20,000 nt of DNA from Rhizaria sp. SCN 62-66 (lineage: Eukaryota), in contig MEDY01000125.1 of NCBI GenBank assembly GCA_001724265.1, positions 50,079 to 70,078 on the forward strand, given 5' to 3'. The notes under the pieces were generated by a model, which worked only from the letters and a program-made list of their open reading frames with translations, was not told the origin of the DNA and did no database searches. The translations under genes and the position numbers were made by a program. Within the stretch, counting starts at the first letter, position 1; each line of letters starts with the position of its first letter. Below are positions 1,901 to 20,000 of this stretch, one piece after another.

Positions 1901-2636
1901 TTACTTTTCGACGGCGTAGGACTTCCAGAGGCCGTCGCCCATGCAGTGCATATTGGTGACGCCGCAGCCGCGCTTGCCGGCCTTCATATCGGCCGTGGAC
2001 ATCGCGGTGAGCCCCACGGCGATGGGGTGCTCCTTGCCCTCGGCGAAGATCGCCACGGGCTTGCCGGCGTCCAGGTCCTGAAAGATCTTGCCCTTAGGGA
2101 AGATGCCCGCGGCCATGATGGGCGCGGCGTTGAGCACGTATGGAATCGCGCCGACGTCGACCTGGACCTTGGGGCACATCTCAGGGTACTTCTGCAGCAT
2201 GTGCACCGTGGGCAGGAACGGTCCATCGTCGTGCTGGAAGAAGATGATCTCGCCCTCGTACACGATGAACTTGACGTGCATCTTGGTCGTGTAGACGTAG
2301 AACGGCGACTTCTTGGGGTACATGGCCTCGAAGTTGGCCGCGAACGCCGGGTACAGCTCAGCCATCTCCTCGCGCAGCTTGCGCGTGTAGCCTGTCTTCA
2401 TCGTTTCACGCTTCGCAACGGCCTCATTCGCGTCGAACGACCTGGACAGGAAGAAGCGTAGGGACGCGGTGTGGCAGGGAAAATGGAAGAGTAAGCAAGG
2501 CAGCGAACGGATTCAGAATGAGCGTGCAGAAAAGAAGTGGCAAGAGACGTATATGTAACATGGAAGTGTGCGTAATAAAAATAGTGCAAATCAAGTAATG
2601 AACCTAGCCGTTAACGTACGTCTTAAAAAGAGACAT
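1901..2636 (-). CDS. MCTS1: MCTS1/TMA20 translation re-initiation and ribosome-recycling factor (pre-PUA + PUA domain), 185 aa; exons 2636-2620 and 2441-1901
   Basis: Family motifs IFFQHDDGPFLPTVHMLQKYP, QVDVGAIPYVL, VAIFAEGKEHPIAVG and HCMGDGLWK. The N-terminus missing from the track ORF is restored by a 17-nt exon (ATG TCT CTT TTT AAG AC|GTACGT...tgtccAG|G TCG TTC GAC), giving MSLFKTSFDANEAV, similar to the usual MFKKF start. Confidence 0.93.
2442..2619 (-). other. Spliceosomal GT-AG intron of MCTS1 (178 nt)
   Basis: GTACGT donor at 2619, CTTAC branch-like motif, pyrimidine tract and cttcttcctgtccAG acceptor at 2442; the phase 2 join is in frame. Confidence 0.88.
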
Positions 2637-2959
2637 GGTTTCTTGGTCGACTTCTCTCGCTCAGAAATCAGCCGTCCTTTTGGCACCTGTCCTCTCGGCC
2701 AGCTCGGTCGATCGCAGTGGACCGAGACCCACGGTCCCAAGTCAAAGCCTGGAAAGTCCGCCTCGGGAAGCATCGAAATGGACTATATTCACCTGTCAAT
2801 GCAAAATAACTGTCTTGGTATAGCAACCTTGTTGGAATTCATATAATGTTTTAATACTTAGAGTCACTCCTCGTCTGCCCTTGTGTTGCACATCACCCAT
2901 TCTTCCAGCCGCTCACCATCCTCTTTTCTCCCCACGCCTTGCGCCACGCAGAGACCAGC
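2637..2959. promoter_or_regulatory. Compact divergent (bidirectional) promoter and 5'UTR region between MCTS1 and the PPR gene
   Basis: Only 323 nt separate the head-to-head ATGs. The region contains an inverted repeat CTCGGTC-N10-GACCGAG (2703-2726) and a pyrimidine tract with CAG (2949-2951) before the PPR ATG. Transcription start sites cannot be located from sequence alone. Confidence 0.55.
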
Positions 2960-5900
2960 ATGTTTGGTCCCCGGGCAATGCGCACACTTATGCGCACTGC
3001 CTCCGCATGCAGCCGCGCGGCTGCGCCCGCCGCCGAGGCCGTGTCCTCATGCGCGCCCGCGGCGGGCGGCGGCAGCGGCGTCTTCCCCACGCGCCCCCTC
3101 GCCGCCTCCAGCACTGGCGCGTCCTCCGCCACGCTCTCTGCGGCCACGGTGACGGTCCCGTCGCGCGCCATCTCGACGGCGGAGCGCGACTACCTGTACG
3201 GCCCCGGCGGCGCGGACCCGACGCGGCGGCCCAAGGTGGACGCGCGCATCACTGCGATGCAGGTCATGGGCAGCGAGTCGACCATCCGCGCCGACTCGGC
3301 CCCGCTCAACTCGGCGGCCGAGCGCCGCGTCTCGCAGCGCCTCGACTGGGTGCGCGACCAGCTGCAGAACACGGTCTACTTTGCGTCCTTCACGTCGGAG
3401 CAGGTTGAGGACCTGGATGAGGCCTTCCAGGCCGTGCGCTTCGCGGCTCCGGCGAAGTTGTGGCACGACGTGATGAACATGTGGTACCACTGGGGCGCAC
3501 ACAACCCCGACGGCGACCCCGCGCTCGCGGCGCAGCGCGTCGACGGCTACTTCCGCGACCTCGTCAACACGACCTCGCAGGGCGTGTGGAAGCTCTCGTG
3601 CGACGGCCGCGCCTCGTCGCCGTACCCCGCCAACATGCTCCGCTTCTCGCTACGCCCCACGCTCAGCACCTTCAACATCGCCATGCGCGCGCACGCCGCG
3701 GCCAAGAACCCCGCGCGCGTGCGCGCCGTGTACGACCTGCTGCTGCAGCTGCGCGGCTCGATTCCGGACCCGGCGGCCGAGCCGGCGCCGACGCAGCCGC
3801 CCGGGCCGGAGCTAGAGAAGGAGCTACTACGCCGGCGCCTCAACGCGCAGCACCGGTCCGACTTGGCGCCCGCCGCGTCCACACACGCGTCGGCCGTGCG
3901 CGCCGCGCTGCAGTCGAACGACCACGAGTTCATGGACCGGACCGTGGCTCGGCTGGCGACGGTGGACCGCGCGCTGCAGCTGACCGAGGCGGCCCACCTC
4001 GACTACATGGAGTCGCTCGCGCGCCGCGGCATGCACTGGGCTGTCGTCGAGTACATGCGCGTCACCTTCCTCCACCAGCCGCTCCGCCGCGCCCCCGCAC
4101 ACGCACACTTACGCACACAGTCGCATGACACGGCGGCGTCAGGCACGCCCGGCTACGGCCTCACCACGGCGCTCGTCCCGGCCGACGTGGGCATCGTGGG
4201 CGTGGCGCCGGGCGCCAACACGGCGCTGCCCTCCTGGCTCGTCGCCCCCGCGGACGGCAGCGCGGCGCCCGCGGTGTCGCGCAGCCCGTTCCCGCCCTCG
4301 CGCGCGCAGTGGCTGCTGGTCATGGAGTCGCTGCAGGCGCTTCACAGCCCCTCGGCGGCCGAGCGCGCCGCCCTCGCGCTGCCGACGGGCTTCCCGCACG
4401 CCGCGCGCGCCAAGGCCGAGCGCCACCACGCGCGCGCGCTGGCGCAGTCGGGCGCGGCCCCGGGCGCCGTGCTGGAGCTGGACGCGGGCGTGCGCCAGTG
4501 GCTCTACGGCAAGCTCGCCGCGCACGGGCTGCCGGTCGAAGCGGCCTTCTACAAGGCGATGCTGCAGCACGCGCCGACGCCCGCGCACGTGGTGTCGTAC
4601 GTCAACGACCTGCACGCACAGGCCGACGCGCTCCACGCGCGCGCCACCGCCGAGCCCGCCACCGCGGCCGAGACCGCGGCCGAGGCCGCCGCGCAAGAGG
4701 CGCGCCGCAAGCTCGTCGTTGACCTCAATACGCCGTCGCGCGACGCCGCGTTCCGGCGCGTCTTCGGCCGATACGCCGACGTCGCCCGCGCGCGCGGCGT
4801 GGCGCCGCCGACGTACGAGGTCGTCCACGAGCGTCTCGTCGACCTGCTCGTGTTCGAGCTCTCGCGCGCCAGCGCCGAGGGCGGCGTCACGTCGCAGGCC
4901 CCGCAGCCCGCGGCGCTGCGCGGAGCGCTGCGCGAGTCGATCCAGGCCTACGCGCAGTACCTTGCCGATAACGTCCGCAAGCCCGGCGACCCTGCGAGCA
5001 ATACTACTACTGCTGCTGCTGCTGATGCTGCTGATGCTGCTGGTAGCGCCGTGGTGTCGGTGGCGGACGCGCGCGCCGGCGCCCCCGCGACGGTGTCTGG
5101 CGTGTCCGTGCGCGCGCCCGCCGTGCCACACAAGGCAATCGAGCGCATCCTGTCGCGCTCGGGCGCCACGGCGGCGCTGCTCTCTCTCGCGGGCTCCCCG
5201 GCCGCGGCACAGCTGCTCGAGCACGTCATGGAGGTGCGCAAGTGCATCACAGCCTACGGCGTTGCGACCACGTCCGACACCAACACGGCCTACATCCGCG
5301 CGCTCGTGCTGGCGTCGCGGCGCGGCGAGGCGCTGCCGCCACTGGCCGTCAACACGGCGACGTCGGTCGTGCCCGTCGTGGTCGCCCCCGTGCGCGTACG
5401 CGTGCGCGCAGCCGTCGAGGGCGAAGAGCGCGAGCGCGTGCTGGCCTCAGTGCGCGACCGTGTGCAGTTCGCCCACTCGAACATCGTGCGCCGCCACGCG
5501 CAGCTGCAGCTCGTCGCCGATGAGGCCGAAATGCTCGAGGCCGCCGGCGCGACCTTGGACCTCCAGCTCGACTGCGAGCTCATCGAGGCGCTCGCCGAGC
5601 TGGGCACCGACGCCGCGCTGCTGCGCGGCCCCTTCGACGCGCCCGCGCGGGCCCCCGGCGCGAGCGCCGCCGAGGCGAACCCAGACGCCGTGGAGGACGT
5701 CGAGGCGGCGGCGCTGCTGGCGACGGCCGACACGCTGCGCGCGTGGACCACGGACATGCTGCGCGCGACCATGACGCGCCTCGTCTCGCGCGCGCTCGTG
5801 GCGCCCGCCGCAGACCTGCAGCACGTGTCGCTGCTGGGCAAAGACGGCGCCGCGACAGTGGCGACCTACCTGCCCCTGCTGCGCGTGCTGGCGGCGCACG

Positions 5901-8900
5901 GCGCGTACGAGGAGCTTCTGCAGGCCGTGGCGGCCGTGCACGAGCGCCGCGGACTTGTCCCCACACAGGAGGTCTTCAACCTCATGACCATTGCGTGCAT
6001 CAACGGCAACGCGCCGGGCCGCGCGCTGCGCGTGCTGGACCTGATGGCGCTCATGACGCGCCCGGGGCAGCTCGCCGCGCGCGGGATCGACTCGGCGGAG
6101 CTCTCGCGCGCCATCACGGCGGGCAACACGGCCGACCTGGTCGCCGACAAGCTCACCGCCGTCTCCGAGGTCTTCCCCGACGAAGTTGCGCTGTCGCTGC
6201 TGTTGCGCGCGCTGCACCAGAAGGGGCTGCTGCAGCACGCCGAGGAGCTGTGGCGCCGTCTCGCGCACCGCCCGCCGTCGTCGTGGACGTCGTACTCGGC
6301 CGTGGAGGAGCAGCAGGCGCTGGCCGAGGCGCTGGCCGAGCATGAGGAGCGAGAGCTGCGCGACGTGGCTTTCGATGACGGCGCCGAGGCGCTGCTGCTC
6401 GCGGCCTCGGCCTCAGCCAGCGAGGGCGAGTACGACGACGCATACAACCCCGCCAAGAACCCCGTGATCCGGAAGCTGCAGACCATCACGCCCGCCGCGC
6501 TGCAGCGCCCGCTGGCGTCGCTGCTGCCCGAGGGCGCGCGCCGCGCGCTGCCGGCGGGCACGCAGCTGCTGCTGGACGCGCCGGCCGACGCGGCGATGGC
6601 GCAGACGTTCATCCAGCTGGGCCACCCCATGCACGCGCTGCAGCTGTACCTGGACGCGCGCGCGGGCATGCCGCAGCGCCCGCTGCCCGACCCCACCGCG
6701 GGCGCGCTCGCGGGCCGCAACGGCTCGGCGCGCGCGGGCGCAGCGGCCAAGCTCAAGGAGCTCGACCCCGAAAGCACGCTGCGCACGCTCGTGCCGAACA
6801 CGAACTTGCACACGACCTTCACGCACACGAGCTTCGGTGACAAGGTCCGCGGCGCCGCCGTTGGCGAGAGCGCGGCCCGGTCGTCCGGTGACGCGGACAT
6901 GGCCGGCGTGGCCGAAGTGCTGGCGGGCGGCAGCGGAACTGGCGAGGACCCGTTGGAGCAGCTCTACGCCAAGGACAGCAACGCGCTGATCGACGTGTCG
7001 CGCATGCTGCCATCACTGCGCCGCGTGCCGCTGCCGCGCGAGCGCGAGTCGCGCCGCCTCAGCGCGCTGCTCGAGTCCTCGGCCGCGGCGCGCCGCGTGC
7101 GGCCGCGCGGGCACGACGTCTCCGGGCTGGAGGCTGACAGCGCCGCGGAGGGCGCCGGTGACAGCCACCCGCTGCTCAACTACTACTGGCCTCAAGCGGA
7201 CCTGCTGGCGGCCGTGGTGCTCTACTACCAGCGGACCGCGCGCGGCACCGTCACGCGCGCCATGGCACAACTGCAGGCCGGCGCGGCCGCCGTGGCCTCC
7301 GCGGCGACCGATGGGTTGGGCGCGGCCGCGGCCGAGACAGCCGAGGCGGACGAGCTTCTGCTGAGCACCGAGGTGGCCAAGGCGACGCTGCAGCAGGCCG
7401 AGGCCGTGGTGGCGCTCTCGCAGCGTGCCATGACCGAGCTGCGCGACTTCGCGCTGGCGCACCCCTACGTGCTAGGCGACGCCGTGACGGATATGCTCTA
7501 CGCGACGCCACGCCCCGGCAGCATCGAGGCCGACATGCAGACGTGCGTCTTCTCGCGGCCCGCGCTCTTGGTGCCCTACGTCGACGCCACGGCCGAACTC
7601 TACCGCACGCTCGACGAGCTCGCGCTCGCCGCCGTCGCCATGGAGGAGTCGCTCTTTAAGGCGCGCGCCGCCAAGCACTCGGTCTTCGGCCTGCGCCGCT
7701 GGCTGGCCATCTTCCCGGCCGTGGCCAACCAGGCGCGCGCGCTGCTGTCGGCGCACTCGCGCAAGGAGTGGATCCAGGGCAACGTCGACCGCCTGCGGCG
7801 CCAGATCGACGCCTCGATCCGCCAGAGTCTGCGCGCGCGCCGCGACGCGCTCAAGCTGGCCGCGCACGAGCGTGCGCTGCTGTCGGTGCCCAAGAGCGAC
7901 GCAGACAGCTCCTGGGTCGCGCGCTTCTCGCAGTTCCTCGGCGTCCAGGACGCCGACGCTATCGCGGACATCTTCCTCCCCGCCGAGCCCGCGTCGACCA
8001 CTCTGGCGAGCGCCGCCGCGCAGACCGAGCATGGCGCTACCGCTTCGAGCGCTGCTGCTGCTGCTGCTCCGAGTGCCAGTGAAGCTGAGGCGAGTGCGAG
8101 TGCGGCGCCTGCGGAGCCCGAGGTGGACCCGCTGGCCGCGCTCATGGCGAGCCTCACCGCAGCCAACGCACCCACCAGCGCGCTCACGGCCGCGCACGAC
8201 GTCTGGACCGCCTCCTCCACCGGCGCCGGCGCCAACGCGGCCACTGGCAAGACCGCGAACAAGAGCGCGGGCGCGGGCGCGGGCGCGGAGGGCGGACGCG
8301 TGTGGAACCCGCTGGGCCCCGGCGAGCTGCCGATCCCGCTGGCGGACCAGGCCGTGTCGGCGTCGGTGGTGGCGCACGTGGCCCGCATCGTGTCGAAGCA
8401 GAAGCGCGCGCGCGAGGATGCCCGCGTGCGGACCTCGCTGACTGAGTACGACGAGCCGACGCAGGCGGCGCTCTTCATGGACGTGCGCGAGCCGTCGGTG
8501 CTGCTGCAGCCGCTGCGCGCGGAGGGCGTGTTCCACTCGCCCTACGGCCCCGAGGGCAAGGGCGGACTCCTCGCCGGCCAGGGCATGCCCTACGCGCGCG
8601 CCAGCGAGGCCGAGACGCGCCGCCGCGCCGCCAACGCGGTGACGGACCCGGCCGCCGTGCGGACCGCGGGCGCCTCGGCGGGCGGCATGTACGTCGAGGA
8701 GCGCGTGCCGACCGAGACTTCGCCGCTGACGGCCGACGTGGATCCGCGGCCCGTCTTCTCGGAGCAGCAGCTCAGCGCGCTGGGCAAGTACAAGTCTGGC
8801 CGCCTTGCCAAGGAGGTCGACCTGCGCCCCACGCCCAGCTTCCACATCTCGGACCTCAAGCTGGGCCAGACGGGCGCGGCGCGGGCCGTCTCGGAGCAGG

Positions 8901-9538
8901 ACCTGGAACGTCTGCTGCTCGAGGGCGACGCGCAGGGGCTTGAGGTCCGCGCCGACAAACCGCTCCGCGGGGCGCGCAACTACCGCGACCAGGACGACGG
9001 CGACGACGGCAGTGCGGGCAACAGCAAGGAGCGCGTGATGGCGTTCGAGGAGCGTCGCAAGACAGGCGTGCAGGCCTTTCGCGAGCGCACACCGGGCCGC
9101 GCGCTGGCCAAGCAGGTGGCCGAGGACACGCGCTCACGCATGGTCGAGGAATACCAGGCCGCCGCGCAGCAGTCGGCCGGCGCGGTGCAATGGGAGCGAG
9201 GGCTGGGCGCGCGAGGCGGGCTCGAGGCCGAAGAGCGCGAGCGTGTTAGCCGCACTGGCGCAACGCGCGACGGCCAGGCGCGGGACCGCGGGTACAACCC
9301 GGTGAACCCGTTCGGCAACGACAAGTCGCTCAACTCGCTTGTGCACGAGATGCGCGGCGCAGGCAAGAAGCACTCGCCCGCGCGCGGCAACGGCAAGCTC
9401 AGTGGCACGGGCGGGTTCAACGACGCCTGGGCCTCGGCCGCGCCGTCGGCCGCCTTCGAGCAGATCAAACAGCCCATGTCCAAGGTGATGCGTGTCAAGG
9501 AGAAGCTCGAGCGCAAGCAGCGCCGCTCCAGCTACTAA
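2960..9538 (+). CDS. Very large (~2192 aa) pentatricopeptide-repeat (PPR)-containing protein, probably mitochondrial
   Basis: Single uninterrupted ORF from the first ATG (2960). The N-terminus MFGPRAMRTLMRTASACSR is Arg/Ser/Thr/Ala-rich and acid-free, like a presequence. PPR-like motifs: RPTLSTFNIAMRAHAAAKNPARVRAVYDLLLQLRG (~3653-3757), tandem ATVATYLPLLRVLAAHGAYEELLQAVAAVHERRG / LVPTQEVFNLMTIACINGNAPGRALRVLDLMALM (~5852-6056), and FPDEVALSLLLRALHQKGLLQHAEELWRRL (~6172-6262). Confidence 0.75.
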   Translation: MFGPRAMRTLMRTASACSRAAAPAAEAVSSCAPAAGGGSGVFPTRPLAASSTGASSATLSAATVTVPSRAISTAERDYLYGPGGADPTRRPKVDARITAMQVMGSESTIRADSAPLNSAAERRVSQRLDWVRDQLQNTVYFASFTSEQVEDLDEAFQAVRFAAPAKLWHDVMNMWYHWGAHNPDGDPALAAQRVDGYFRDLVNTTSQGVWKLSCDGRASSPYPANMLRFSLRPTLSTFNIAMRAHAAAKNPARVRAVYDLLLQLRGSIPDPAAEPAPTQPPGPELEKELLRRRLNAQHRSDLAPAASTHASAVRAALQSNDHEFMDRTVARLATVDRALQLTEAAHLDYMESLARRGMHWAVVEYMRVTFLHQPLRRAPAHAHLRTQSHDTAASGTPGYGLTTALVPADVGIVGVAPGANTALPSWLVAPADGSAAPAVSRSPFPPSRAQWLLVMESLQALHSPSAAERAALALPTGFPHAARAKAERHHARALAQSGAAPGAVLELDAGVRQWLYGKLAAHGLPVEAAFYKAMLQHAPTPAHVVSYVNDLHAQADALHARATAEPATAAETAAEAAAQEARRKLVVDLNTPSRDAAFRRVFGRYADVARARGVAPPTYEVVHERLVDLLVFELSRASAEGGVTSQAPQPAALRGALRESIQAYAQYLADNVRKPGDPASNTTTAAAADAADAAGSAVVSVADARAGAPATVSGVSVRAPAVPHKAIERILSRSGATAALLSLAGSPAAAQLLEHVMEVRKCITAYGVATTSDTNTAYIRALVLASRRGEALPPLAVNTATSVVPVVVAPVRVRVRAAVEGEERERVLASVRDRVQFAHSNIVRRHAQLQLVADEAEMLEAAGATLDLQLDCELIEALAELGTDAALLRGPFDAPARAPGASAAEANPDAVEDVEAAALLATADTLRAWTTDMLRATMTRLVSRALVAPAADLQHVSLLGKDGAATVATYLPLLRVLAAHGAYEELLQAVAAVHERRGLVPTQEVFNLMTIACINGNAPGRALRVLDLMALMTRPGQLAARGIDSAELSRAITAGNTADLVADKLTAVSEVFPDEVALSLLLRALHQKGLLQHAEELWRRLAHRPPSSWTSYSAVEEQQALAEALAEHEERELRDVAFDDGAEALLLAASASASEGEYDDAYNPAKNPVIRKLQTITPAALQRPLASLLPEGARRALPAGTQLLLDAPADAAMAQTFIQLGHPMHALQLYLDARAGMPQRPLPDPTAGALAGRNGSARAGAAAKLKELDPESTLRTLVPNTNLHTTFTHTSFGDKVRGAAVGESAARSSGDADMAGVAEVLAGGSGTGEDPLEQLYAKDSNALIDVSRMLPSLRRVPLPRERESRRLSALLESSAAARRVRPRGHDVSGLEADSAAEGAGDSHPLLNYYWPQADLLAAVVLYYQRTARGTVTRAMAQLQAGAAAVASAATDGLGAAAAETAEADELLLSTEVAKATLQQAEAVVALSQRAMTELRDFALAHPYVLGDAVTDMLYATPRPGSIEADMQTCVFSRPALLVPYVDATAELYRTLDELALAAVAMEESLFKARAAKHSVFGLRRWLAIFPAVANQARALLSAHSRKEWIQGNVDRLRRQIDASIRQSLRARRDALKLAAHERALLSVPKSDADSSWVARFSQFLGVQDADAIADIFLPAEPASTTLASAAAQTEHGATASSAAAAAAPSASEAEASASAAPAEPEVDPLAALMASLTAANAPTSALTAAHDVWTASSTGAGANAATGKTANKSAGAGAGAEGGRVWNPLGPGELPIPLADQAVSASVVAHVARIVSKQKRAREDARVRTSLTEYDEPTQAALFMDVREPSVLLQPLRAEGVFHSPYGPEGKGGLLAGQGMPYARASEAETRRRAANAVTDPAAVRTAGASAGGMYVEERVPTETSPLTADVDPRPVFSEQQLSALGKYKSGRLAKEVDLRPTPSFHISDLKLGQTGAARAVSEQDLERLLLEGDAQGLEVRADKPLRGARNYRDQDDGDDGSAGNSKERVMAFEERRKTGVQAFRERTPGRALAKQVAEDTRSRMVEEYQAAAQQSAGAVQWERGLGARGGLEAEERERVSRTGATRDGQARDRGYNPVNPFGNDKSLNSLVHEMRGAGKKHSPARGNGKLSGTGGFNDAWASAAPSAAFEQIKQPMSKVMRVKEKLERKQRRSSY
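5001..5043 (+). repeat. In-frame (ACT)/(GCT) trinucleotide run encoding TTTAAAADAADA; similar (GCT)6 run at 8051-8068
   Basis: actactactgctgctgctgctgatgctgctgatgctgct read directly; T-ending codons contrast with the surrounding C/G-ending codons. Confidence 0.8.
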
Positions 9539-9990: not shown

Positions 9991-12900
9991 TCAGAGATGA
10001 TCGTCAAACTGCGCGAACCCGCCCTTGTGAACGGCACCGCCGCCGCCGCCGCCCGCCGCGTAGAGCGCGTACGGGTCGTCATCGAGGTCGGTGTCCGTCG
10101 CACCGCCGCCGCCGCCGCCGCCGCCGCCGTTGAAGCGCTGATGCTGCTTGCGCGCGTGCTGCTGCTGCAACTGCTGCTGAGACAGGCCCTTGCCCGCGCC
10201 CGCCGCCGCAGCCTTGCCAGCCGCGCCTGCAGCATCAGCCGCGCCCGCGCTCGAGCCAGCGCCCGCACTGCCGGCCGCGGCCGCGGGCGCCGTGCCGACG
10301 GCGACCTTGGCGGGCGCGCGGCGCGTCTGCTCGGCCAGGTCGCGGCGGTAGCGGAAGACTTCGGTCAGCACGGCCGTAATCATGCCCGTCACCGAGGCGA
10401 TGGGGAAGCGGTAGTAGTTGCTCTGCTGCAGCGCGAGGTCCATGTGGCCACGCGTGCGGTTGCCGCCGTCGACGACGCCGAAGGTGTAGCCGAAGTACAG
10501 CCCACCCATTAGCGCGGCAAAGCACATGAAGCGCATCTCGTCCAGCGAGTGCGAGAATGGCATCTCGGTGCCGGCACCGGCCTTGAGCACGCGCGACAGC
10601 GCCAGCGGCGAGCCCGCGGCCGCAGCGGCGCGTGAGCGGGACGTGGCGAGCCGGCGGGAGGACGCGGAGGCGAAGGCCGAGGGGGCGGTGGGGGCCGAAT
10701 ACCAGCGCGAGCGCGCCGCGGCGTCGGCGTCCTGCTCGAGCGCGGCGGTGCGGATTTTGTAGATGAGGCGCTGTGACACGTAGCCGATCTCGAGCGCGAC
10801 GAAGACGATGCAGAAGGACAACGAGCCGGCGAGCAGGAAGAAGGTGGGGATGCGCAGCGCCGTGGCCAGCGTCAGCAGCGGGACGTGGTGCAGCGACATG
10901 CACAGCGCGCTCGCCAGCGTCAGCGCCACGGAGAAGAGCGTCAGGATGGCCGTCAGCGTGCAGCAGCCGGTGCGGCGCAGCTCGCGCGCCGTGATGGCCG
11001 GCACGGGCGCGGCGGGCACGAGCGAGCGCGCGCCGCCGCCCGGGGAGCGCACGACCTGCATCGGCACCGCCGAGCCGCGCGGGACGCCCTCCAGCGCACC
11101 GGTCATCGCGCCCGCTGCGGGGACGGCGTCGAGCGCGGCGAGCGCGGAGGGCGGCGCGGCGGGGTCGTACAGCGAAGACAGCCCGATACGCGCCTTGTGG
11201 CCGCGAGAGGCCTTGCCACCGCCGCCGTGGCCGTGGCCGAGCAGCCCGGCCTCCTCGCGGCCGGCCGCGGCCGTGGACGCGGCGTAGCCGGCGTAGTCGT
11301 CGTCGTCGTCGTCCGAGCCCGAGGCGGCGTCCAGGTCGCGGAAGAAGGGGATGTGGTCGCGCGAGCCCGCGGCGCGCGAGGCCGCGGCGGCGAGCTGCAT
11401 GCGCCGCACAACGCCGCGGCTCCAGGCGACAAAGACGCCGATGATGAGGTAGAGTAGCGCGAAGACGTAGGAGAACTGGCGCGAGAGCGTGACTTCGACG
11501 AGGACGTTGTTGATGCACACGGCGATGCAGATAGAGCAGAGCGCGCCCACGCACGCGTTGTGCACGCACGAGGTGAGGAAGATGACCCAGCCGGGCAACT
11601 CGTGTGCGTGCTTGGTCGCGTAGTGCTTGACGACGTAGGTGGTGAAGAAGCCGATGATGAGGAGCCCAAAGAAGAAGTCCCACACCAGGTACGCGTCGCC
11701 GTCGAGCGGGCACTCCTCGGCGTGCACGACGATCGAGTCAACGTCAGGGCAGATTGAAAACCACGGGTCGTCTTCGTCGGTCTCGGTCGCGCTCGTGGTG
11801 CCCTCGCCGCCGCCGCCGCCGCTGCCGCCGCCGCCGCCCGCGCCGCCGGAGCCGGAGCCCGAGACGGAGCCTGTGACGGTGCTCTTGACGGTGCTGATGA
11901 GGCTGGCCACGCCGGACGACACCATGCCGCCCGCGCCGCCGCCGCTCTTGCCGCTGCCGCTGCCGCTGCCGTTCTTGCCGCCAGCCGCGCCGCCGTGGTC
12001 ACTGTTGCCAGAGCCAGCGCCGGCGCCCGCAGCGGCAATGCCACCGGCGCCCGCGCCCTTGCCAGCGCCAGCGCCAACGCCAGCGGTGTCGCTCCTGCCG
12101 GCGCCCTTGCCTTCGCCGCTGTCGCCGCCCGCCGCGCCGGCGACGGCGGCCGAGTCGGCGCCTGCGCCCGCGCCCGCGCCCGCGCCGGGCTTGGCAGGCT
12201 TGCCATTGGCGCCTGTGGGGGTCTTGAGCTTGTTCGCCTTGCCCTTGTGGCGGCCGAAGTTGGCGATCGTATCCGCGTCGGGCTCCGTCTCGGGCACGCC
12301 CGCAGCGGCGGCCTTGGCGGCGGCCGCGGCCGCGTTAGTCGCCGCCGCCGCCTTGGCCGCAGCAGCCTCGCCCTCAGCAGCAGCAGCAGGAGTGCCGCTG
12401 CCCGCGTGGCCGCCGCTCGCGTTGGTGGCGTCGCGGGCCTCGATCTGCGTAGCCATCTCGGCGAAGACGGAGAAGAGGTGCCGGTCGAGCCCCATGCCAA
12501 ACTCCATGCCCATGCGGTGCGGGCGACGCATCGCGCGGTACGTCGCCGCGGCCGCCGCAGAGCCCACTAGCGCGCCCGGGATGCAGCGCCGCGTCGACGG
12601 GCACCAGCGGCAGTCGTGCGCGGCCGACACGCACGCGCCGCAGCCCTTGGCCGAGGCCAGCACGCAGGTCCGAGCCGAGAGCGTCGTGTCGACAATGCAG
12701 CTGGGACCGAAAAAACCCGGGTCGCACTTATCCTGCGCGCGCGCCACCGCCGTGCTGCCGCCGCGGGCGCCGGCGGCGGAGCCCGCGCTGGCACCCGCGG
12801 CGCTCGCGTCGGCGCCCGCGGCCGCGGCCTCAACCGCGGCGTCGGTCCCGCTGGCGAGCACCACGCCCGCCGCGGCGGCGTCGGTGCCCGCGGCCGCACT

Positions 12901-15027
12901 GCCCGCCGTCGCCGTCGTGTCCACGGGCGTCAGCAGCTCCACAGCGGCCGCCACGGAGGCGGGCGTCGGGCCCTCAGCGGCGGCCGCGGCGGCCACGGCG
13001 GCCGCGTCGGCCTCGGCCTTGCTCTCGCGGACCGGCGCAGTCGGCAACACCTGTGTTGAAGTAAATAAGACAAGTTACGAAAAAAACAAAAAGGCGAAAT
13101 GAGATAAAACCAGTCGATAAACAAGAAAGTAGCAGAATTGAAGCCAACAATGATCTCGAGTTTGTTTCTGCTTCTGCTTTTGCTTCTGCTGATGTCGTAC
13201 CTGACTGTAGAAAGTAATGCCGTTGGCCGCGGCGGCGGTGACGGCGGCGGGCACTGGCTGCTGGGTCCGCTCGAAGTACCAGTCGCAGAGGCGCATGTGG
13301 TCGGCGCTGCGCGCGTCGGTGGCTGCGGTGAAGCCGACGAGGTACTCCCCGCGGAGCGCGAGCACGCGCGCCTGCAGCAGCGGCGTGGTGAGGTCGTTGA
13401 GGAAGACCGACACGACGCCCTCGTGGTAGTCGATCTGCACGACGTTGACCGGCGTGGCCGACCCCGAGGCCGCCTGCGCGCCCGTGCGGGAGGCGAACGA
13501 GTCGACCACGCGCGACCGCGCGCGGGGGGACAGCCGCGGCAGCGACTTGGAGATGGCCGTGGCCGTCGCGTTGGCCGGGATCACGAGATCCGGCATCACC
13601 GTCAGCGACGCCGCGGCCACAGTCGCCGCCGCCGCCGCCGCGGCCTCGGCAGCCGTCGGGGGCGCGCTGCTGGCCGCGCCCGCGCTGCCGTTGAGCGCGA
13701 GCAGGCTCGGACCAGCAGCAGGGGACGTCGCGGCAGCATCGGCAGCATCAGCAGGAGCAGAAGAGCCCTCGTCACCGGCGCTGCTGGCATTGGCGCTAGC
13801 AGTACCGGTACCCGTGCCTTTGCGATTCTTCTTCTCAGTCGCGGCCGTCACTGCTGCGGCCACGGCCGTGACCGCGGCCTGCGCGGCCGAGTCGGCGGCG
13901 GCGACTGCGGCGGCGGCGGCCTTGGCGGTGCCTTCGTCGGCGCTGTCCATCGCCTCGCGCGCGAGCCGGCGGCGCATGCGCGCGAACTCGGCCACGGGGA
14001 TGCGGTGGATCGCCAGGTTCGCGGGCGCCGCCATCGACGTGATGTCGTGCGTCGACGAGAGCTGGAAGCCCTCGCCCGCGCCCCAGTGCACGGCCACGTG
14101 CGGCGCGGGCGGGTCGTCGCGCTCGGGGTTGGAGACGAGGTCGAACTCGACCGCGAAGCCCTCGCCCAGGTCGGTGAAGCCCAGCCCCGAGCCGGGCGCG
14201 CCCGTGCGGCGCGGCGAGTCGGCCGCGATCACCACAAACGCCAGCCCCTCGCCGGGCCGCAGGCCGATCGTGGGGCGCGCCGACGCCGCGGTGGTCGCGT
14301 TTCCGCTGGCAACCTCGCTTTTGTCGCTCTTGTCTCTCTTCTTGGCGTCCTTGTCCTTCTTGCGCTTGTCCTTGGGCTTACCGCTGTTACTGCTGTTGCC
14401 CGCGCTGGCGGTGCCGTTACCGCCCGCCGCGGCGCTGTCGAGCGCGCCGTCGTCGTCGGTGCCGTCGCCGTCGTCGTCGTCCTCCAGCCCCTCGAGCCAC
14501 TCGGCCGGGTCCTCGTCGATGATGCCCTCGCGGAGAATCTTGAGGTTGAAGGTCGTAAACAGCCCGCGCGGCGGCGGCGCGTTCTCGTCCGTCGGCTCGT
14601 CGAACTTGATGCGTTTCTCATAGTAGGCCGAGTTGGCGGCGACGCGGTCCTTGCGCTTGGACGACATCGACAGACAGCCATCGGGGCCCGCGCGCGCGCC
14701 GTTGAACTGCAGGTTCTTGCGCTCGCGGAAGTTCGAATAGTAGAACCGCGCCTGCGCCGCGCCGACGAACGACGGCAGCACGGACTCGAGAAGACTGCTG
14801 TGGCCAGCGGCAGGGCCAGATAAAGATCCTGAGATCGAGTCAGAGTCTGTGCTCCACATGTGTGAGTTTGTGCTTGATAGAGCAAGGATAAGCGCAAGGG
14901 CAAGCACGACGTGCGACAGCGCCAGGCGGAACAGCTGTGAGCACACCGCGGCAGAGCTGCCAGAGCTCGGCGCCGGTGAGTGCTGACTCGGCTGAGCGCT
15001 ACTGGGGCATCGGGAGGGGAGGCTCAT
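9991..15027 (-). CDS. Multidomain membrane protein (~1628 aa): signal/anchor helix, legume-type (L-type) lectin domain, EGF-like/PSI cysteine module, seven predicted TM helices; exons 15027-13201 and 13050-9991
   Basis: Track ORFs 13075..15090 and 9991..13050 join in phase 0 through CAG|GTACGA...caacacAG|GTG. Lectin motifs: FYYSNF..NLQFNG, GEGLAFVV, GSGLGF, AVEFDLVSN..DDPPAPHVAVH, VGFTAAT, HMRLCDWYF. Cys module: CDPGFFGPSC, CGACVSAAHDCRWCPSTRRC. Seven hydrophobic segments lie between ~11694 and ~10355. The start is the first in-frame ATG; an upstream exon is not excluded. Confidence 0.8.
13051..13200 (-). other. Spliceosomal GT-AG intron (150 nt)
   Basis: AT-rich island within GC-rich coding sequence; donor CAG|GTACGA, T-rich tract, ttcaacacAG acceptor; contains the in-frame TAA that ends the track ORF at 13075. 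Confidence 0.9.
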
Positions 15028-15777
15028 AAGCCCTATGTTTCGAGAGCGACGCTGCAGCGCGAAGCTAGAGCGCGGAGCGGAGTATGGCACGGGACGCGGG
15101 GGTGGGGCTAGTCCGGTGCAAAGCAGCAGGCGGCAAACGGCCTGGAGAGGGCAGGGGGTGACGCGAGCGCTGGAATCGGTGAGAAGAAACGAACTCGCGC
15201 GGGCGCTGCGGGTGTGTGCGGGGATGTGGCGCGGTGGCCGCGGTTGGGGAGCGGGGTAGGCTAGAGTGGTTTGAGTGCAAGCTAGCTGGCCGTGCGTCGA
15301 CTGGAGTTGGGCATAAATTGCACCGGCAAGGCAGGAAAATGAGACTTGAGATATGAAGAGCAGGACAAGGAGACACTATAGAGACGTCCAGGACACCCAC
15401 AGAGACGTTCAATCGTAATGTGTGCAAACCACGCAAAGATATTGTAAGGAATGCCCAGTGTAAATACAAACTGAACGGGTAATGGCGCTGTTGACGGAGC
15501 CCCTAGCGTGATACAGTAGGGTCCTAAATCTGCCGTCAGCATCCCAGCCGGCTTGGTGGCGAGCCAGCGAGCCCACGGTCACTTGGAGCGCTGTTCGACC
15601 ACGCAAAACATCAAAAAGATAGTATGCCACATCATCAAATACGAATGCAATAGTGTCCTGTAATTGCCCCTGTGGGGATCTCTATTGTTCTTTAATTATA
15701 CCCTTGAAAAAGTGTCTCACGGTACCCATATTCCTTGTTGCTTTCACTCTCTGCACTTTCGGCCGCTCTCCACAGGA
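15028..15777. promoter_or_regulatory. Divergent promoter and 5'UTR region between the lectin-7TM gene and DDX51
   Basis: 750 nt between head-to-head ATGs, lower GC, no convincing ORF. Confidence 0.5.
15622..15775 (+). other. Putative 5'UTR intron of DDX51 (154 nt)
   Basis: GTATGC donor at 15622 (same hexamer as at 1531); pyrimidine tract ctttcactctctgcactttcggccgctctccacAG|gaATG. Confidence 0.55.
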
Positions 15778-18700
15778 ATGCAGGCCGCCCGTACGCCGCA
15801 CTCCGCGGCCCGGTCTTCCGGTGACCGCCGCAACAGCTCATCATCTTCTGGTGCGTGGTCTTCCTCCCGCCCCGGGCGCGGCGCCCCCGCGAAGCCCGCG
15901 CCCAAGCCCGCGCCCAAACCCGTGTCTGACTCGGCGCAAGCGCGCATGTCGGACATCGCGGCCGCCGTCGCCGCCATGACTGCGGCGTACTCGCCCGCGA
16001 CGGACGCGACTGCGCTGCACGCCGTCGTCGACGCGCTGGACGCGTCCGTGAACCACGGCTCCGCGGACGCGGTCGAGGTGGCGAAGCGCCACCACGTGAA
16101 GAAGCTGCGCAAGCTGCTCCGCACAGCCGCTCCCGCGACGTACGCGGCGCCGCGCTCGCTCGAGGCGGCGCTGCAGCTGTCCGCGCTGCCCGAGGCGTTC
16201 CGCGCGGCGCTGCAGCGCGAGGAGGCGGCGAAGCGCGCGGCAGCGTTGGTGGTGCCGCAGGGCAAGCAGTTCGCGCAGACGGTCGACGCGCGTAACGAGG
16301 CCATGGAGGCCAGTGACAAGATCCGGGCGCAGCGCGCCGCGGCCGCCGAGGCAGAGGCAGAGGCCGCCGCCAAGGACGCCGCCGAGGGCAAGAAGGCAGC
16401 GCTGACGGGCAAGCAGCTGCTCGACAAGGCGATCGAGAAGCTTAAGGCCGAGAATTCTGCCGCCGCCGACGCCATAGCGGACGCTGAGGAGGTGGAGAAG
16501 GATAAGAAGGACAAAAAGGATAAGAAGGACAAGAAGGCCGCCGCCGAAGCCGCCGCCGCTGCTGTCGCCGCTGCGAAACGCGCTGCGCGTGACAGCGGTG
16601 AGAGCAGTAGCAGCAGCGGCAGCGGCAGCAGCAGCGGCAGCGAGAGCGAGGGCGCACGCGACCGCCGACTGCAGCGCGCCGCCGCCGCCAAGGCCGCGCG
16701 CGCCGCCCGCGCCGGCACCACGGCTCCCGCTGATTCCGTCACGGCTGAGAGCAAGACCGAGAGCAAGACGCGCATGGCCGACAGCGGCAGCAGCAGCAGC
16801 AGCTCGAGCTCCGAGTCCGAGTCCGAGTCCTCTGACAGCGACGCCGACGCCGCCAAGAGTCGGCAGCGCGCCGACGCCGTCGTGGTATCGACCACGTCAA
16901 AGCAGTCGACGACGACCGCGGCGGCGGCGGCGGCGGGCACGGACGCGCAGTCGATGCGCGCGGCGGCGGCGGCGCTGGCGCGCGAGGCCTCGCTGCCCGC
17001 CTGGATGCTCAGCGGGCGCGTGATCCGCGGCTCCGAGGCCTACGTCATCCCCGCCGCCGCAGACAGGCTCGCCGCGCGGCCCGCCTTCGTCAGCGCCTTC
17101 CTCGGCAACAGCAGCAGTGGCAAGGGCGGCAAGTCCACCGCCGCGGGCGACAACAGTGACGCCGACGACGACGACGACGACGACGGTGACGAAGACGATG
17201 GCAGCGCGGGCGGGAAGAAGGGCAAGAAGGGCGCGGCTCTGCCACTGCCGCCGTTCGCGCTGCACCCCGCGCTGTGCGACGCGCTGCGCGCGCAGGGCTT
17301 CAAGTCCTTCCTACCCGTGCAGGCCGCCGTGCTGCCTTCGCTGCTGCCGCCCGCGCCCCCCGCCGCCGCTGCTGCAACCGCCGCCGCCGCCGCGCACGGC
17401 CCCGCGCCCCCGCCCAAAGTCTCCTCCGCGTCCGCGTCGTCCTCGTCGTCCTCGTCATCGGCGTCGTCGTCCTCAGCGTCGCTGCTGTCGACGCTGGCGG
17501 CCCCGCTTGCGCCCTTCATCGGCACCTCGCGCGACGTGTGCGTGTGCGCGCCCACTGGCTCCGGCAAGACGCTCACCTTCCTGCTGCCCGTCCTCAACGC
17601 GCTTGCCGCGCGCCCCACAGCCCGCCTGCGCGCGCTCATTGTGCTGCCGACGCGCGACCTGGCGCGGCAGATCCACACCGTAGCTGTCCCGCTGTGCGCC
17701 GCCGTGGGGCTGCGCGCCGCGCTCTCGGTCGGCCACCGCAGCGCCGCGCACGACGTCGCAGACATGTGCTCCGCCGCGGCCAGGATGCAGGCGCGCGCCG
17801 CCGCCGCGGGCGTCGCCTCCTGGGCCGCCGCGGTCACCAGCGCCAGCGCCAGTGCCAGTGCTGGGACCACCGCGATGACTGACAGCGACTGCGCCTACGC
17901 CAACGCCGAGAGCAGCGCGCCCGTCGACATGGCCTACGCCATGCACAACGGCGCTGAGGAGCTGGCGGTGGACTGCGACATCCTGATCGCGACGCCGGGG
18001 CGGCTGGTGGAGCACCTGCAGGCGACGCCGGGCTTCGACCGCGCACTACGCACTCTCGAGTTCCTCGTCATCGACGAGGCCGACCGGCTCATGACCGACT
18101 CGTTCAACGACTGGGCGCACGCGCTGCTCGCCGCCGTCAATGGACACTCCTCGTCCTCGCAGAGTCACGCCAGCGCGAGCTCTGGCTCTGGGTCTGCCGC
18201 TGTTATGGAGGGCCCGGTGAGCGAGCGCGTGCTGTCGCGCCACGACGGGCAGGCGGGCGCGCGCGGGACGCCGCTGCAGAAGCTGCTCTTCTCAGCCACT
18301 TTCACGCGCAACCCGCGGCACCTGGCCGTGCTAGGGCTCGTGTCGCCGCTCTACTTCTCCTTCTCCGCGCGCGCCGCCGCCGCCGTCGTCGAGGGCCGCC
18401 TCACGACGCTGTGCACAGACGGTGCCGAGGACGATGACGAGGAGGAGCTCGACGAGAGCCTCATTCTCCGCACAGAGGCCGGGTTCGCCGCCAACGACCT
18501 CAAGTTCCGCCTCCCCGACGGGCTGTCGGAGCGCTTCCTGGTGTGTTCGACCGGCGAGAAGCCGCTCATGCTCTACCTGGTCATGATGTACCTCATGCGC
18601 AAGGAGCGCGCGGCCTCCGTGCCCGCCGCCGCCACGCCCGACGGCGCCGTCGCCGTCGCCGACTACGACATCGAAGCAGGTAGTAGCAGCAGCAGCAGTG

Positions 18701-20000
18701 GCAAGCGTGTGCCGCGGTTCCTGATCTTCACGTCTGCGCTCGACACGACGCACCGCCTGTGCCGCCTGTTGGAGCTGTTGTCGCTGTTCCGCGTGCCGTG
18801 CGCCGAGATCTCGTCTTCGCACTCGCAGACTGTGCGCACGCGCACGCTCGCGGCCTTCCGCGCGGGCCGCATCCAGGCGCTCGTGTGCTCCGACGCCGCC
18901 GCGCGCGGGCTCGACCTGCCCGACGTCGACTACGTCATCAACTACTCCGTGCCGGCGACCGCGCGCACGTACGTGCACCGCGTCGGCCGCACCGCGCGCG
19001 CGGGCCGATCGGGCACGGCCGTGACGCTATGCACGCAGCCGCAGGTGATCTTCCTCAAGAAGTTTGTCCGCCTGGCCGTGCACAACTCCAACCCGCTGCA
19101 GCTGACGCTCAAGCGCCCGCGCGCGGCGCTGGCGACGGAGCCCGCGGCCGTGGTGGACCACCTGCTGCACGTCGCCGCGTGCGCCGAAACGGCCGTCGAG
19201 CGTTCGGGCGTCGTGCGCACGGCCTTCGCCAACGCGCGCCACCAGGCCCACAAGCGCGAGCAGTGGGAGGCCGCCAAGGCCACCGGCGCCGCCAGCGCCG
19301 ACGTCGCGCTCACCCAAGAGGGCAAGGCCTCCGCCGCCGCCGCCAAGGCCACGGACGCCGCGACCGAGGCCGTGGCGCAGGAGTGGCACGGCGCCGTGTC
19401 GGCCGCCGCCGCCGCCGTGCCGCGCGCACCGGCGTTGTGGAGCGCGCTGGCTTTCCCGCTGCTGACCGTGCTGGCGGCGGCCGAGCAGGCTGTGCCGTAC
19501 GCGGCCCGCTACGCTCGCGCGCTGCGCGTGCTGGAGCGCGTGCTCGCCGCCGAGGCCGCGCACGCGCTGCTGCCGCACCAGCCGCTCTTCCCCGTGCTGC
19601 TAGCGCACCTCGCCGCCGCGGCCGCCGCGGGCGCGGGGCCTGCGGCCGGCAACGTCGACGCCGTCGCGCTGCTCGCGGGCAGCAGCAACGCTGCCGCGCC
19701 GCCGACGACCGCGCCCGGGATCGTCGCCGCGGCGGCACGCGCGCTGGGCGCCGAAGTAGCCGTGATCACCGAGCGGCCCGACCGCGCCGCCGCCGTGGCC
19801 GCCGTCGAGTCGCTGACGCAGCGCGCCATCGTCGCGGCGACGCCCGCCGCCGCCGCTGCCGCCGCCGCTGCCGCCGCCAACAGCAGCGCGGCCGCCGCCG
19901 TGCGCGCGCTGCCCGCGGGCGCGGCCGAGGCGCTGACGGCGGCGGGCGTCGTGCTGGCCAAGGACTCGCTCGCCGGCGTGGCGCGCGCGGCCGACGGCAC
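15778..20000 (+). CDS. DDX51: DEAD-box RNA helicase DDX51/Dbp6 (60S ribosome biogenesis), 3'-truncated by the window, >1407 aa
   Basis: Open frame from ATG 15778 to the window end. Motifs: LPAWM; Q motif GFKSFLPVQAAVLP; RDVCVCAPTGSGKTLTF; PTRDLARQ; DILIATPGRLVEHL; LEFLVIDEADRL (DEAD at 18073-18084); LQKLLFSAT; ARGLD; YVHRVGRTARAG. RDVCVCAPTGSGKT, LQKLLFSAT and KFRLPDGLSE..KPL resemble the DDX51/Dbp6 subfamily. Confidence 0.9.
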   Translation, partial: MQAARTPHSAARSSGDRRNSSSSSGAWSSSRPGRGAPAKPAPKPAPKPVSDSAQARMSDIAAAVAAMTAAYSPATDATALHAVVDALDASVNHGSADAVEVAKRHHVKKLRKLLRTAAPATYAAPRSLEAALQLSALPEAFRAALQREEAAKRAAALVVPQGKQFAQTVDARNEAMEASDKIRAQRAAAAEAEAEAAAKDAAEGKKAALTGKQLLDKAIEKLKAENSAAADAIADAEEVEKDKKDKKDKKDKKAAAEAAAAAVAAAKRAARDSGESSSSSGSGSSSGSESEGARDRRLQRAAAAKAARAARAGTTAPADSVTAESKTESKTRMADSGSSSSSSSSESESESSDSDADAAKSRQRADAVVVSTTSKQSTTTAAAAAAGTDAQSMRAAAAALAREASLPAWMLSGRVIRGSEAYVIPAAADRLAARPAFVSAFLGNSSSGKGGKSTAAGDNSDADDDDDDDGDEDDGSAGGKKGKKGAALPLPPFALHPALCDALRAQGFKSFLPVQAAVLPSLLPPAPPAAAAATAAAAAHGPAPPPKVSSASASSSSSSSSASSSSASLLSTLAAPLAPFIGTSRDVCVCAPTGSGKTLTFLLPVLNALAARPTARLRALIVLPTRDLARQIHTVAVPLCAAVGLRAALSVGHRSAAHDVADMCSAAARMQARAAAAGVASWAAAVTSASASASAGTTAMTDSDCAYANAESSAPVDMAYAMHNGAEELAVDCDILIATPGRLVEHLQATPGFDRALRTLEFLVIDEADRLMTDSFNDWAHALLAAVNGHSSSSQSHASASSGSGSAAVMEGPVSERVLSRHDGQAGARGTPLQKLLFSATFTRNPRHLAVLGLVSPLYFSFSARAAAAVVEGRLTTLCTDGAEDDDEEELDESLILRTEAGFAANDLKFRLPDGLSERFLVCSTGEKPLMLYLVMMYLMRKERAASVPAAATPDGAVAVADYDIEAGSSSSSSGKRVPRFLIFTSALDTTHRLCRLLELLSLFRVPCAEISSSHSQTVRTRTLAAFRAGRIQALVCSDAAARGLDLPDVDYVINYSVPATARTYVHRVGRTARAGRSGTAVTLCTQPQVIFLKKFVRLAVHNSNPLQLTLKRPRAALATEPAAVVDHLLHVAACAETAVERSGVVRTAFANARHQAHKREQWEAAKATGAASADVALTQEGKASAAAAKATDAATEAVAQEWHGAVSAAAAAVPRAPALWSALAFPLLTVLAAAEQAVPYAARYARALRVLERVLAAEAAHALLPHQPLFPVLLAHLAAAAAAGAGPAAGNVDAVALLAGSSNAAAPPTTAPGIVAAAARALGAEVAVITERPDRAAAVAAVESLTQRAIVAATPAAAAAAAAAAANSSAAAAVRALPAGAAEALTAAGVVLAKDSLAGVARAADG
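16498..16536 (+). repeat. Coding 9-nt repeat giving a KKD tract (KDKKDKKDKKDKK)
   Basis: aag gat aag aag gac aaa aag gat aag aag gac aag aag read in the DDX51 frame. Confidence 0.85.

Follow-up and report, generated by a model that had tools for sequence, protein, structure and literature searches.

The analysed window, a 20,000-nucleotide stretch of the Rhizaria sp. SCN 62-66 assembly (contig MEDY01000125.1, positions 50,079 to 70,078), carries a minus-strand gene (15027-9991) with one 150-nt GT-AG intron that is predicted to encode a lectin-bearing, seven-helix membrane protein of 1628 amino acids. The protein begins with a signal-type helix and an L-type lectin domain; an EGF-like cysteine pair and a PSI module of eight cysteines follow, then seven membrane helices (TM1-7) and finally an end of the form D-x-L. 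Judged from the sequences compared, it belongs to a conserved, multi-species and Rhizaria-centred family, which is new relative to an earlier note made from the letters of this window. The reading that we favour, at a probability of roughly 45%, is that of a cycling capture or sorting receptor, which would owe its origin to a single event that fused a lectin-PSI head to an ancient six-helix module and would be routed by its conserved acidic-hydrophobic C-terminus. The gene model, architecture and orthology are well supported because colinear one-chain homologs exist and an intron-free relative lies beside an orthologous helicase gene.

A search with the membrane part of the protein against 1.84 billion representative sequences returned 19 proteins, the window's own included. 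Seven of the 19 combine lectin-like, PSI and membrane parts in one chain; one of these seven lacks part of its N-terminus and scored for PSI only. A profile search added further compact forms of 600-680 residues. In 13 homologs of full or nearly full length, one chain holds the whole architecture; identity over the core columns is 26-45%, and the window protein is colinear with them from the lectin start to the last residue. These homologs bear out the single protein with lectin, Cys-rich stalk and seven helices proposed in the earlier note. The 13 homologs, two of which come from one 90% cluster, and the window protein were aligned as 14 rows, hereafter the fused rows; truncated records were left out. 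Names given by cluster look-up are Chlorarachnion reptans, Lotharella globosa, Gymnochlora (the cluster of homolog P0145) and, for a partial model, Bigelowiella natans; the identical layout is seen in a transcript of Lapot gusevi. The one-chain homologs include transcriptome records of chlorarachniophytes and Lapot (Rhizaria). Of the five named organisms, two were confirmed as Rhizaria, and the other three are chlorarachniophytes. A full lectin-PSI-7TM protein (P0009) in a transcriptome labelled Ploeotia vitrea, a euglenid, is nested among the fused forms; this label may reflect contamination or a wider range of the family. The Bigelowiella model (P0150) joins the lectin straight to TM2-5, without the stalk, TM1 and TM6-7, and is probably a faulty gene model; the near-identical, unnamed P0146 is complete.

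The features of the gene, all on the minus strand, and its neighbour are located in the window as follows.

13201..15027, minus strand: exon 1, starting with the ATG at 15027; 609 codons (residues 1-609) for the N-terminal hydrophobic helix and the L-type lectin domain
13051..13200, minus strand: predicted phase-0 GT-AG intron of 150 nt, in the linker between the lectin and the Cys-rich stalk
9991..13050, minus strand: exon 2, 1019 codons (residues 610-1628) for the stalk, seven helices and tail, with the stop at 9991
14872..14934, minus strand: residues 32-52, a hydrophobic helix of the signal-peptide type that lies some 40 residues ahead of the conserved mature lectin start and is putatively cleaved
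13270..14748, minus strand: legume (L-type) lectin domain, residues about 94-586, broken by Ala/Gly/Ser-rich insertions
14098..14151, minus strand: metal-binding loop with E294, D296, D305 and H310, placed by alignment to peanut lectin
14248..14250, minus strand: E260, at the place of the legume-lectin sugar-binding Asp in the same alignment
12697..12726, minus strand: EGF-like cysteine pair C718/C727
12583..12666, minus strand: first six cysteines of the PSI module, with C-x-W-C (Pfam PF01437)
11710..11751, minus strand: last two PSI cysteines, C1043 and C1056, after a low-complexity insertion
11629..11691, minus strand: TM1, specific to the fused form
11413..11559, minus strand: TM2 and TM3, corresponding to helices 1-2 in the stand-alone six-helix family (E 4.3e-10 for profile block 1)
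10783..10965, minus strand: TM4 and TM5, helices 3-4 of that family (profile block 2, E 3.8e-7)
10342..10527, minus strand: TM6, luminal loop and TM7, helices 5-6 of that family (profile block 3, E 4.5e-13)
9994..10008, minus strand: C-terminus ending D-x-L, kept though the tails are otherwise unalignable
15772..19998, plus strand: neighbouring gene in head-to-head orientation, encoding a DEAD-box helicase whose N-terminus is long and of low complexity

The window is eukaryotic DNA with GC-rich exons and AT-richer spacers. When the two exons were joined by script, a single stop-free reading frame of 1628 codons was obtained. The intron has a GC content of 37%, against 70% and 74% in the exons, and contains an in-frame stop; among the five YAG sites listed, a pyrimidine-rich tract (0.70) is found only at the 13051 acceptor. 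Its position corresponds to the variable linker after the lectin in the homolog alignment, and the homologs are continuous across this point. A metagenome contig encodes a 40%-identical relative of the lectin-7TM protein in one intron-free open reading frame (one locus confirmed among 174 pattern matches), also head-to-head with a DEAD-box helicase. In the window's genome (34.9 Mb assembled in 714 contigs), the relative's helicase is matched best by the helicase beside the lectin gene (E 3.7e-46 vs 8.8e-18 for the next). By comparison of the sequences, the window copy owes its large size to lineage-specific padding: relative to a compact 623-aa homolog, insertions account for 1022 of its 1628 residues, and 53% of the inserted residues are Ala, Gly or Ser. 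Full-length homologs have an equivalent of the N-terminal hydrophobic helix ahead of the lectin start.

The lectin assignment is based on a Pfam Lectin_legB match over the cut-off in exon 1 (E 2.4e-14), and the sequence is closer to legume and bacterial-type lectin profiles than to Lectin_leg-like. E294, D296, D305 and H310, which we take to be metal ligands from their counterparts in legume lectins, are invariant in all fused rows; in legume lectins, the metal ligands serve to shape the sugar site. The beta-sandwich that AlphaFold2 models for homolog P0145 has structural matches in legume lectins, ERGIC-53, Emp47p and VIP36. The head has the metal ligands and the fold of an L-type lectin; the sugar-binding Asp that is invariant in such lectins is missing. 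The stalk consists of a two-cysteine EGF-like hairpin followed by the PSI module, and all ten cysteines are invariant in 14/14 rows. Although the PSI match in exon 2 falls under the Pfam cut-off (E 6e-4), all eight of its cysteines are present, divided by about 280 low-complexity residues. The EGF/PSI module of the earlier note is thus upheld for PSI; a full EGF domain with six cysteines and three disulfides is absent, since only two cysteines precede PSI and no EGF Pfam match was obtained.

The seven membrane helices quoted in the earlier note all lie where it placed them, and hydrophobic segments are present at all seven aligned places in every fused row, with TM6-7 the weakest. Plain hydropathy (19-residue Kyte-Doolittle peaks of at least 1.5) recovers TM1-6, the N-terminal helix and one Ala-rich false peak, and TM7 is weak, so that six membrane helices would be counted by this measure; a rough insertion-energy scale recovers five of the seven. 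The count of seven is supported by the family alignment and by the AlphaFold2 model, which was built for the 623-residue P0145 from a 64-row alignment (mean predicted local distance difference test score 79) and places seven helices within residues 347-606, in addition to a beta-sandwich and a small module rich in cysteines; domain packing in this model is unsure because the predicted template-modelling score is 0.56. The signal helix, the lectin, the disulfide-type cysteines and the charge bias (2, 6, 4 and 4 Lys+Arg close to helix ends in the inside segments vs 1, 1 and 3 in the outside loops) argue for an N-out/C-in topology, as the earlier note had it, with the head outside the cell or in an organelle lumen and the tail cytosolic. 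The N-glycosylation sequons that the note also invoked add little to this argument because eight of nine lie within lineage-specific insertions, and the NRT sequon between TM6 and TM7 is not conserved.

No part of the membrane region reached the Pfam cut-off, and the six-helix core has neither a Pfam family nor a clear match to a solved fold. TM2-7 is homologous, on sequence evidence, to a stand-alone six-helix protein of alveolates. In this stand-alone family, 196 matches were found among 8000 scored candidates, and the named ones are alveolates, including Toxoplasma (B6KFK1/EPT30634), Perkinsus, Vitrella, Tetrahymena (Q23H92) and Gregarina. A profile built from 125 stand-alone members only gave 73 bits (E 1.2e-24) against the window protein, its matches forming three colinear blocks, whereas the maximum in 200 shuffles was 1.4 bits; the resemblance to an uncharacterised protist six-helix family that the earlier note raised is thereby confirmed. 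In a quick tree of 65 sequences, all 14 fused-type rows fell on one side of a branch with a Shimodaira-Hasegawa-like approximate likelihood ratio support of 85, from which we infer a single origin for the fusion of the head onto the six-helix module. A stand-alone six-helix paralog also occurs in the window's genome (contig C225; 1120-1788 of locus L002, plus strand); its first exon was not located.

The C-terminus is the best-conserved cytoplasmic feature, and it speaks for sorting no less than for signalling. The D-x-L terminus is found in all 14 fused rows, while neither the length nor the sequence of any cytoplasmic loop or of the remaining tail is conserved, and Pfam scans detected no catalytic cytoplasmic domain. 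Among the stand-alone proteins, 107/125 end in an aromatic-D/N-D/E-x-hydrophobic motif and 112/125 in [DE]-x-hydrophobic; the latter was found in none of 15 bacterial lectin proteins used as a control. Because this free C-terminus is conserved across two lineages of the stramenopile-alveolate-Rhizaria (SAR) group, a conserved cytosolic partner may be expected. The terminus fits the class III PDZ pattern, and PDZ domains exist in the genome. Retriever ligands of the SNX17 and LRMDA type have the consensus [ILV]-x-[DEQN]-x-[DEQN]-L (10.1101/2024.03.12.584676). The genome has a VPS35L ortholog (contig C209; E 9.6e-139 to human) in which the SNX17-binding pocket residues are conserved, and a VPS26C-like gene (contig C195); from these sequences, Retriever appears intact in this protist.

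Comparison with described systems places the protein, on the features tested, outside adhesion G-protein-coupled receptors (GPCRs), the ERGIC-53/VIP36 group and plant lectin kinases, yet on the favoured reading it would work like a lectin receptor. It shares the lectin fold with ERGIC-53, VIP36 and Emp47p, but these have a single helix rather than seven, a coiled coil instead of the EGF-like/PSI stalk, and a di-lysine or di-aromatic tail in place of the D-x-L end; with seven helices and no di-lysine signal in any fused row, membership in that family was rejected. Plant L-type lectin receptor kinases and receptor-like proteins such as LecRK-I.9/DORN1 likewise carry a legume lectin ectodomain on a membrane protein, and their canonical sugar-binding Asp is replaced, as it is here (PMC5485988). 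In LecRK the replacement is His and a kinase follows, whereas the window family has mostly Glu, seven helices and a PSI stalk; membership was rejected since Pfam scans gave no cytoplasmic kinase domain. Plexin, integrin-beta and attractin receptors also place an eight-cysteine PSI with C-x-W-C beside an EGF-like stalk element. They are single-pass proteins with Sema, vWA or Kelch heads, unlike the L-type lectin head and multipass anchor found here. Adhesion GPCRs share the layout of a large adhesive ectodomain on an N-out/C-in seven-helix bundle, but the present bundle is of a 1+6 type whose six-helix part is homologous to a stand-alone protein, and it has no 7tm_2 match. The likeness to adhesion GPCRs drawn in the earlier note goes no further than this layout: the GPS/GAIN pattern is absent in 14/14 rows and GPS/GAIN Pfam matches were not obtained, and no GPCR Pfam family was matched among 141 members at E<=0.01, nor by the window protein at E<=1. 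The note's observation that GPCR motifs are missing holds across all fused rows, which lack DRY, NPxxY and CWxP patterns. Structural likeness to GPCRs is weak and out of register. The stand-alone alveolate family, annotated as "putative membrane protein", shares the homologous six-helix core and the acidic-hydrophobic C-terminus; it has no ectodomain and no TM1, is uncharacterised, and matches no Pfam or NCBIfam family at the cut-off. Both the colinear homology over six helices and the acidic-hydrophobic end that define this SAR family were found in the window protein. A TauE/SafE exporter was rejected (sub-threshold matches only, in 33/141 members; no internal repeat; no reciprocal match to the genome's TauE-like genes), and TMEM117 (PF15113) gave an Atlas feature score of 0.76, below the level often reached by shuffles, and no Pfam match.

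Under the favoured reading, a signal peptide, an L-type lectin, an EGF-like hairpin, PSI and one extra helix would have been joined to an older six-helix protein. The Ca/Mn-loaded lectin would bind a glycoconjugate, probably of a non-canonical kind, at the surface or in the secretory or endocytic lumen, and the PSI stalk would keep it above the bundle. A coat, adaptor or PDZ-type protein would then grip the free acidic-hydrophobic C-terminus and shuttle the complex between compartments, a logic that may resemble that of the single-helix ERGIC-53/VIP36 in a different family. Several observations weigh against this account. None of the RNA contigs listed spans the splice, and a contig from a polyA RNA run (13123-13385) extends 78 nt into the intron, although it may represent DNA or unspliced RNA. 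Tree support for a single origin is moderate. In the window, as in 9/14 fused rows, Glu stands in place of the sugar-binding Asp, which only 2/14 rows keep, and N300 (the loop-C Asn) is kept in 6/14, so that glycan binding is putative; plant lectin kinases without this Asp are suspected to be unable to bind monosaccharides (PMC5485988). The tail matches no sorting consensus tested: the di-lysine KKxx signal occurs in 0/14 fused rows, and a Retriever ligand was rejected since its consensus occurs in 1/14 fused and 0/125 stand-alone proteins and not in the window, in a genome that has Retriever genes. PSI modules are otherwise known from cell-surface receptors, the genome has G-alpha genes, and the conservation of the six-helix core would be greater than a sorting anchor needs.

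The most basic alternative, that a secreted lectin and a downstream membrane protein are two genes and the intron is an intergenic gap, is very improbable. Automatic gene callers list exon 2 as a separate protein, and no RNA contig crosses the 13201/13050 junction, where the earlier note had looked to transcripts for an answer (four runs with low-depth contigs, among the 15/73 joints and 32/1815 pieces listed), and the intron-entering contig speaks for a gap. The 13 one-chain homologs, the intron-free relative with the same neighbour, the canonical in-phase splice signals, and an exon 2 with no Met or signal helix upstream of the Cys-rich module stand against it; RNA leaves the question undecided, and it is settled in practice by the homologs. 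A cell-surface signalling receptor convergent on adhesion GPCRs, along the lines of the earlier note, would suit the stalk, the seven-helix layout and the G-alpha genes. Its lectin would recognise glycans on prey, host or mate, its PSI stalk would displace the bundle, and its cytoplasmic side would act via G proteins, arrestin-like proteins or a PDZ scaffold. Such a receptor is nevertheless unlikely, and sorting is preferred over a G-protein receptor, because no cytoplasmic loop is conserved and the core and tail are kept in lineages with reduced GPCR systems: the stand-alone core persists in ciliates, which have G-beta alone, and in apicomplexans and Perkinsus, with GPCR systems among the most reduced (PMC3971589). 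We regard as rather improbable a head that keeps the fold and metals but binds a protein, nucleotide or partner subunit, as in some plant lectin receptor kinases (PMC5485988); the protein would then serve as a subunit in adhesion or scaffolding or in the manner of a chaperone, and might pair with the stand-alone paralog. The replacement of the Asp by Glu, His, Cys or Gly in 12/14 fused rows, the variable loop-C Asn, and the presence of both the fused protein and the paralog in one genome favour such a head, but Glu is the majority residue and retains the carboxylate, and the four other metal ligands are invariant. A gated transporter or channel is likewise a minor and improbable candidate; its six-helix core would carry a substrate, for instance in food vacuoles, and the lectin-PSI head would gather that substrate or gate its passage.

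Beyond the capture-and-sorting reading, we tentatively consider a bolder possibility, about which doubt prevails: that Rhizaria, by adding a lectin-PSI head and a further helix to a six-helix module of unsolved fold, created a glycan-reading receptor of an undescribed, non-GPCR seven-helix class. The module itself, which is conserved in Toxoplasma, ciliates and Rhizaria alike, would then be a core component of membrane trafficking or signalling in SAR that has so far gone unrecognised and that works by way of its free acidic C-terminus. If the bundle is a new fold, the ectodomain-plus-7TM layout would have originated independently. Recognition of prey, hosts or internal cargo by the amoebae and flagellates of the Rhizaria is very poorly understood, and this protein, a conserved single-copy lectin anchored by a seven-helix bundle that is not of the GPCR type, offers a concrete candidate for it. 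The parts list is half familiar (lectin and PSI), and the function is a prediction. The fusion also hints at a function for the orphan six-helix family, whose conservation spans the alveolates and takes in apicomplexan parasites; because a lectin is fused to it, the family may handle glycosylated or luminal ligands with a conserved cytosolic partner. The combination was not recognised in the earlier note, and no described family with a lectin, PSI and multi-TM architecture was found; literature searches aimed at the architecture or the family accessions, covering titles and the starts of abstracts outside subscription journals and supplements, yielded no description. The family sequences are already in public collections as unnamed or hypothetical proteins, and the location of the stand-alone orthologs may already be recorded in parasite proteomics supplements.

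Elsewhere in the window, a 2227-codon open frame (2855-9538, plus strand) is Ala-rich, with an apparent mitochondrial targeting start and helical-repeat stretches that look like pentatricopeptide repeats by eye; neither the whole nor its halves matched Pfam. A Pre-PUA plus PUA protein, MCTS1/Tma20-like by domain content, is encoded at 1901-2512 (minus strand). Elsewhere in the genome, ubiquitin genes (at loci L007, L010, L011 and L014) have an extra Met-Ser ahead of the usual first residue, which fits a rhizarian ubiquitin insertion, and several are single units with a short C-terminal extension. Two giant surface-type proteins, on contigs C79 (about 27600-40700) and C59 (about 94300-105600), have open frames of 4373 and 3769 codons, each combining an L-type lectin domain with filamin/GEX2-type immunoglobulin repeats, and share a short basic terminal motif. 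The protein on C79 also has the N-terminal domain of the integrin-beta-like Sib proteins of Dictyostelium, and both are worth a look as candidate adhesion or gamete-fusion-related receptors.

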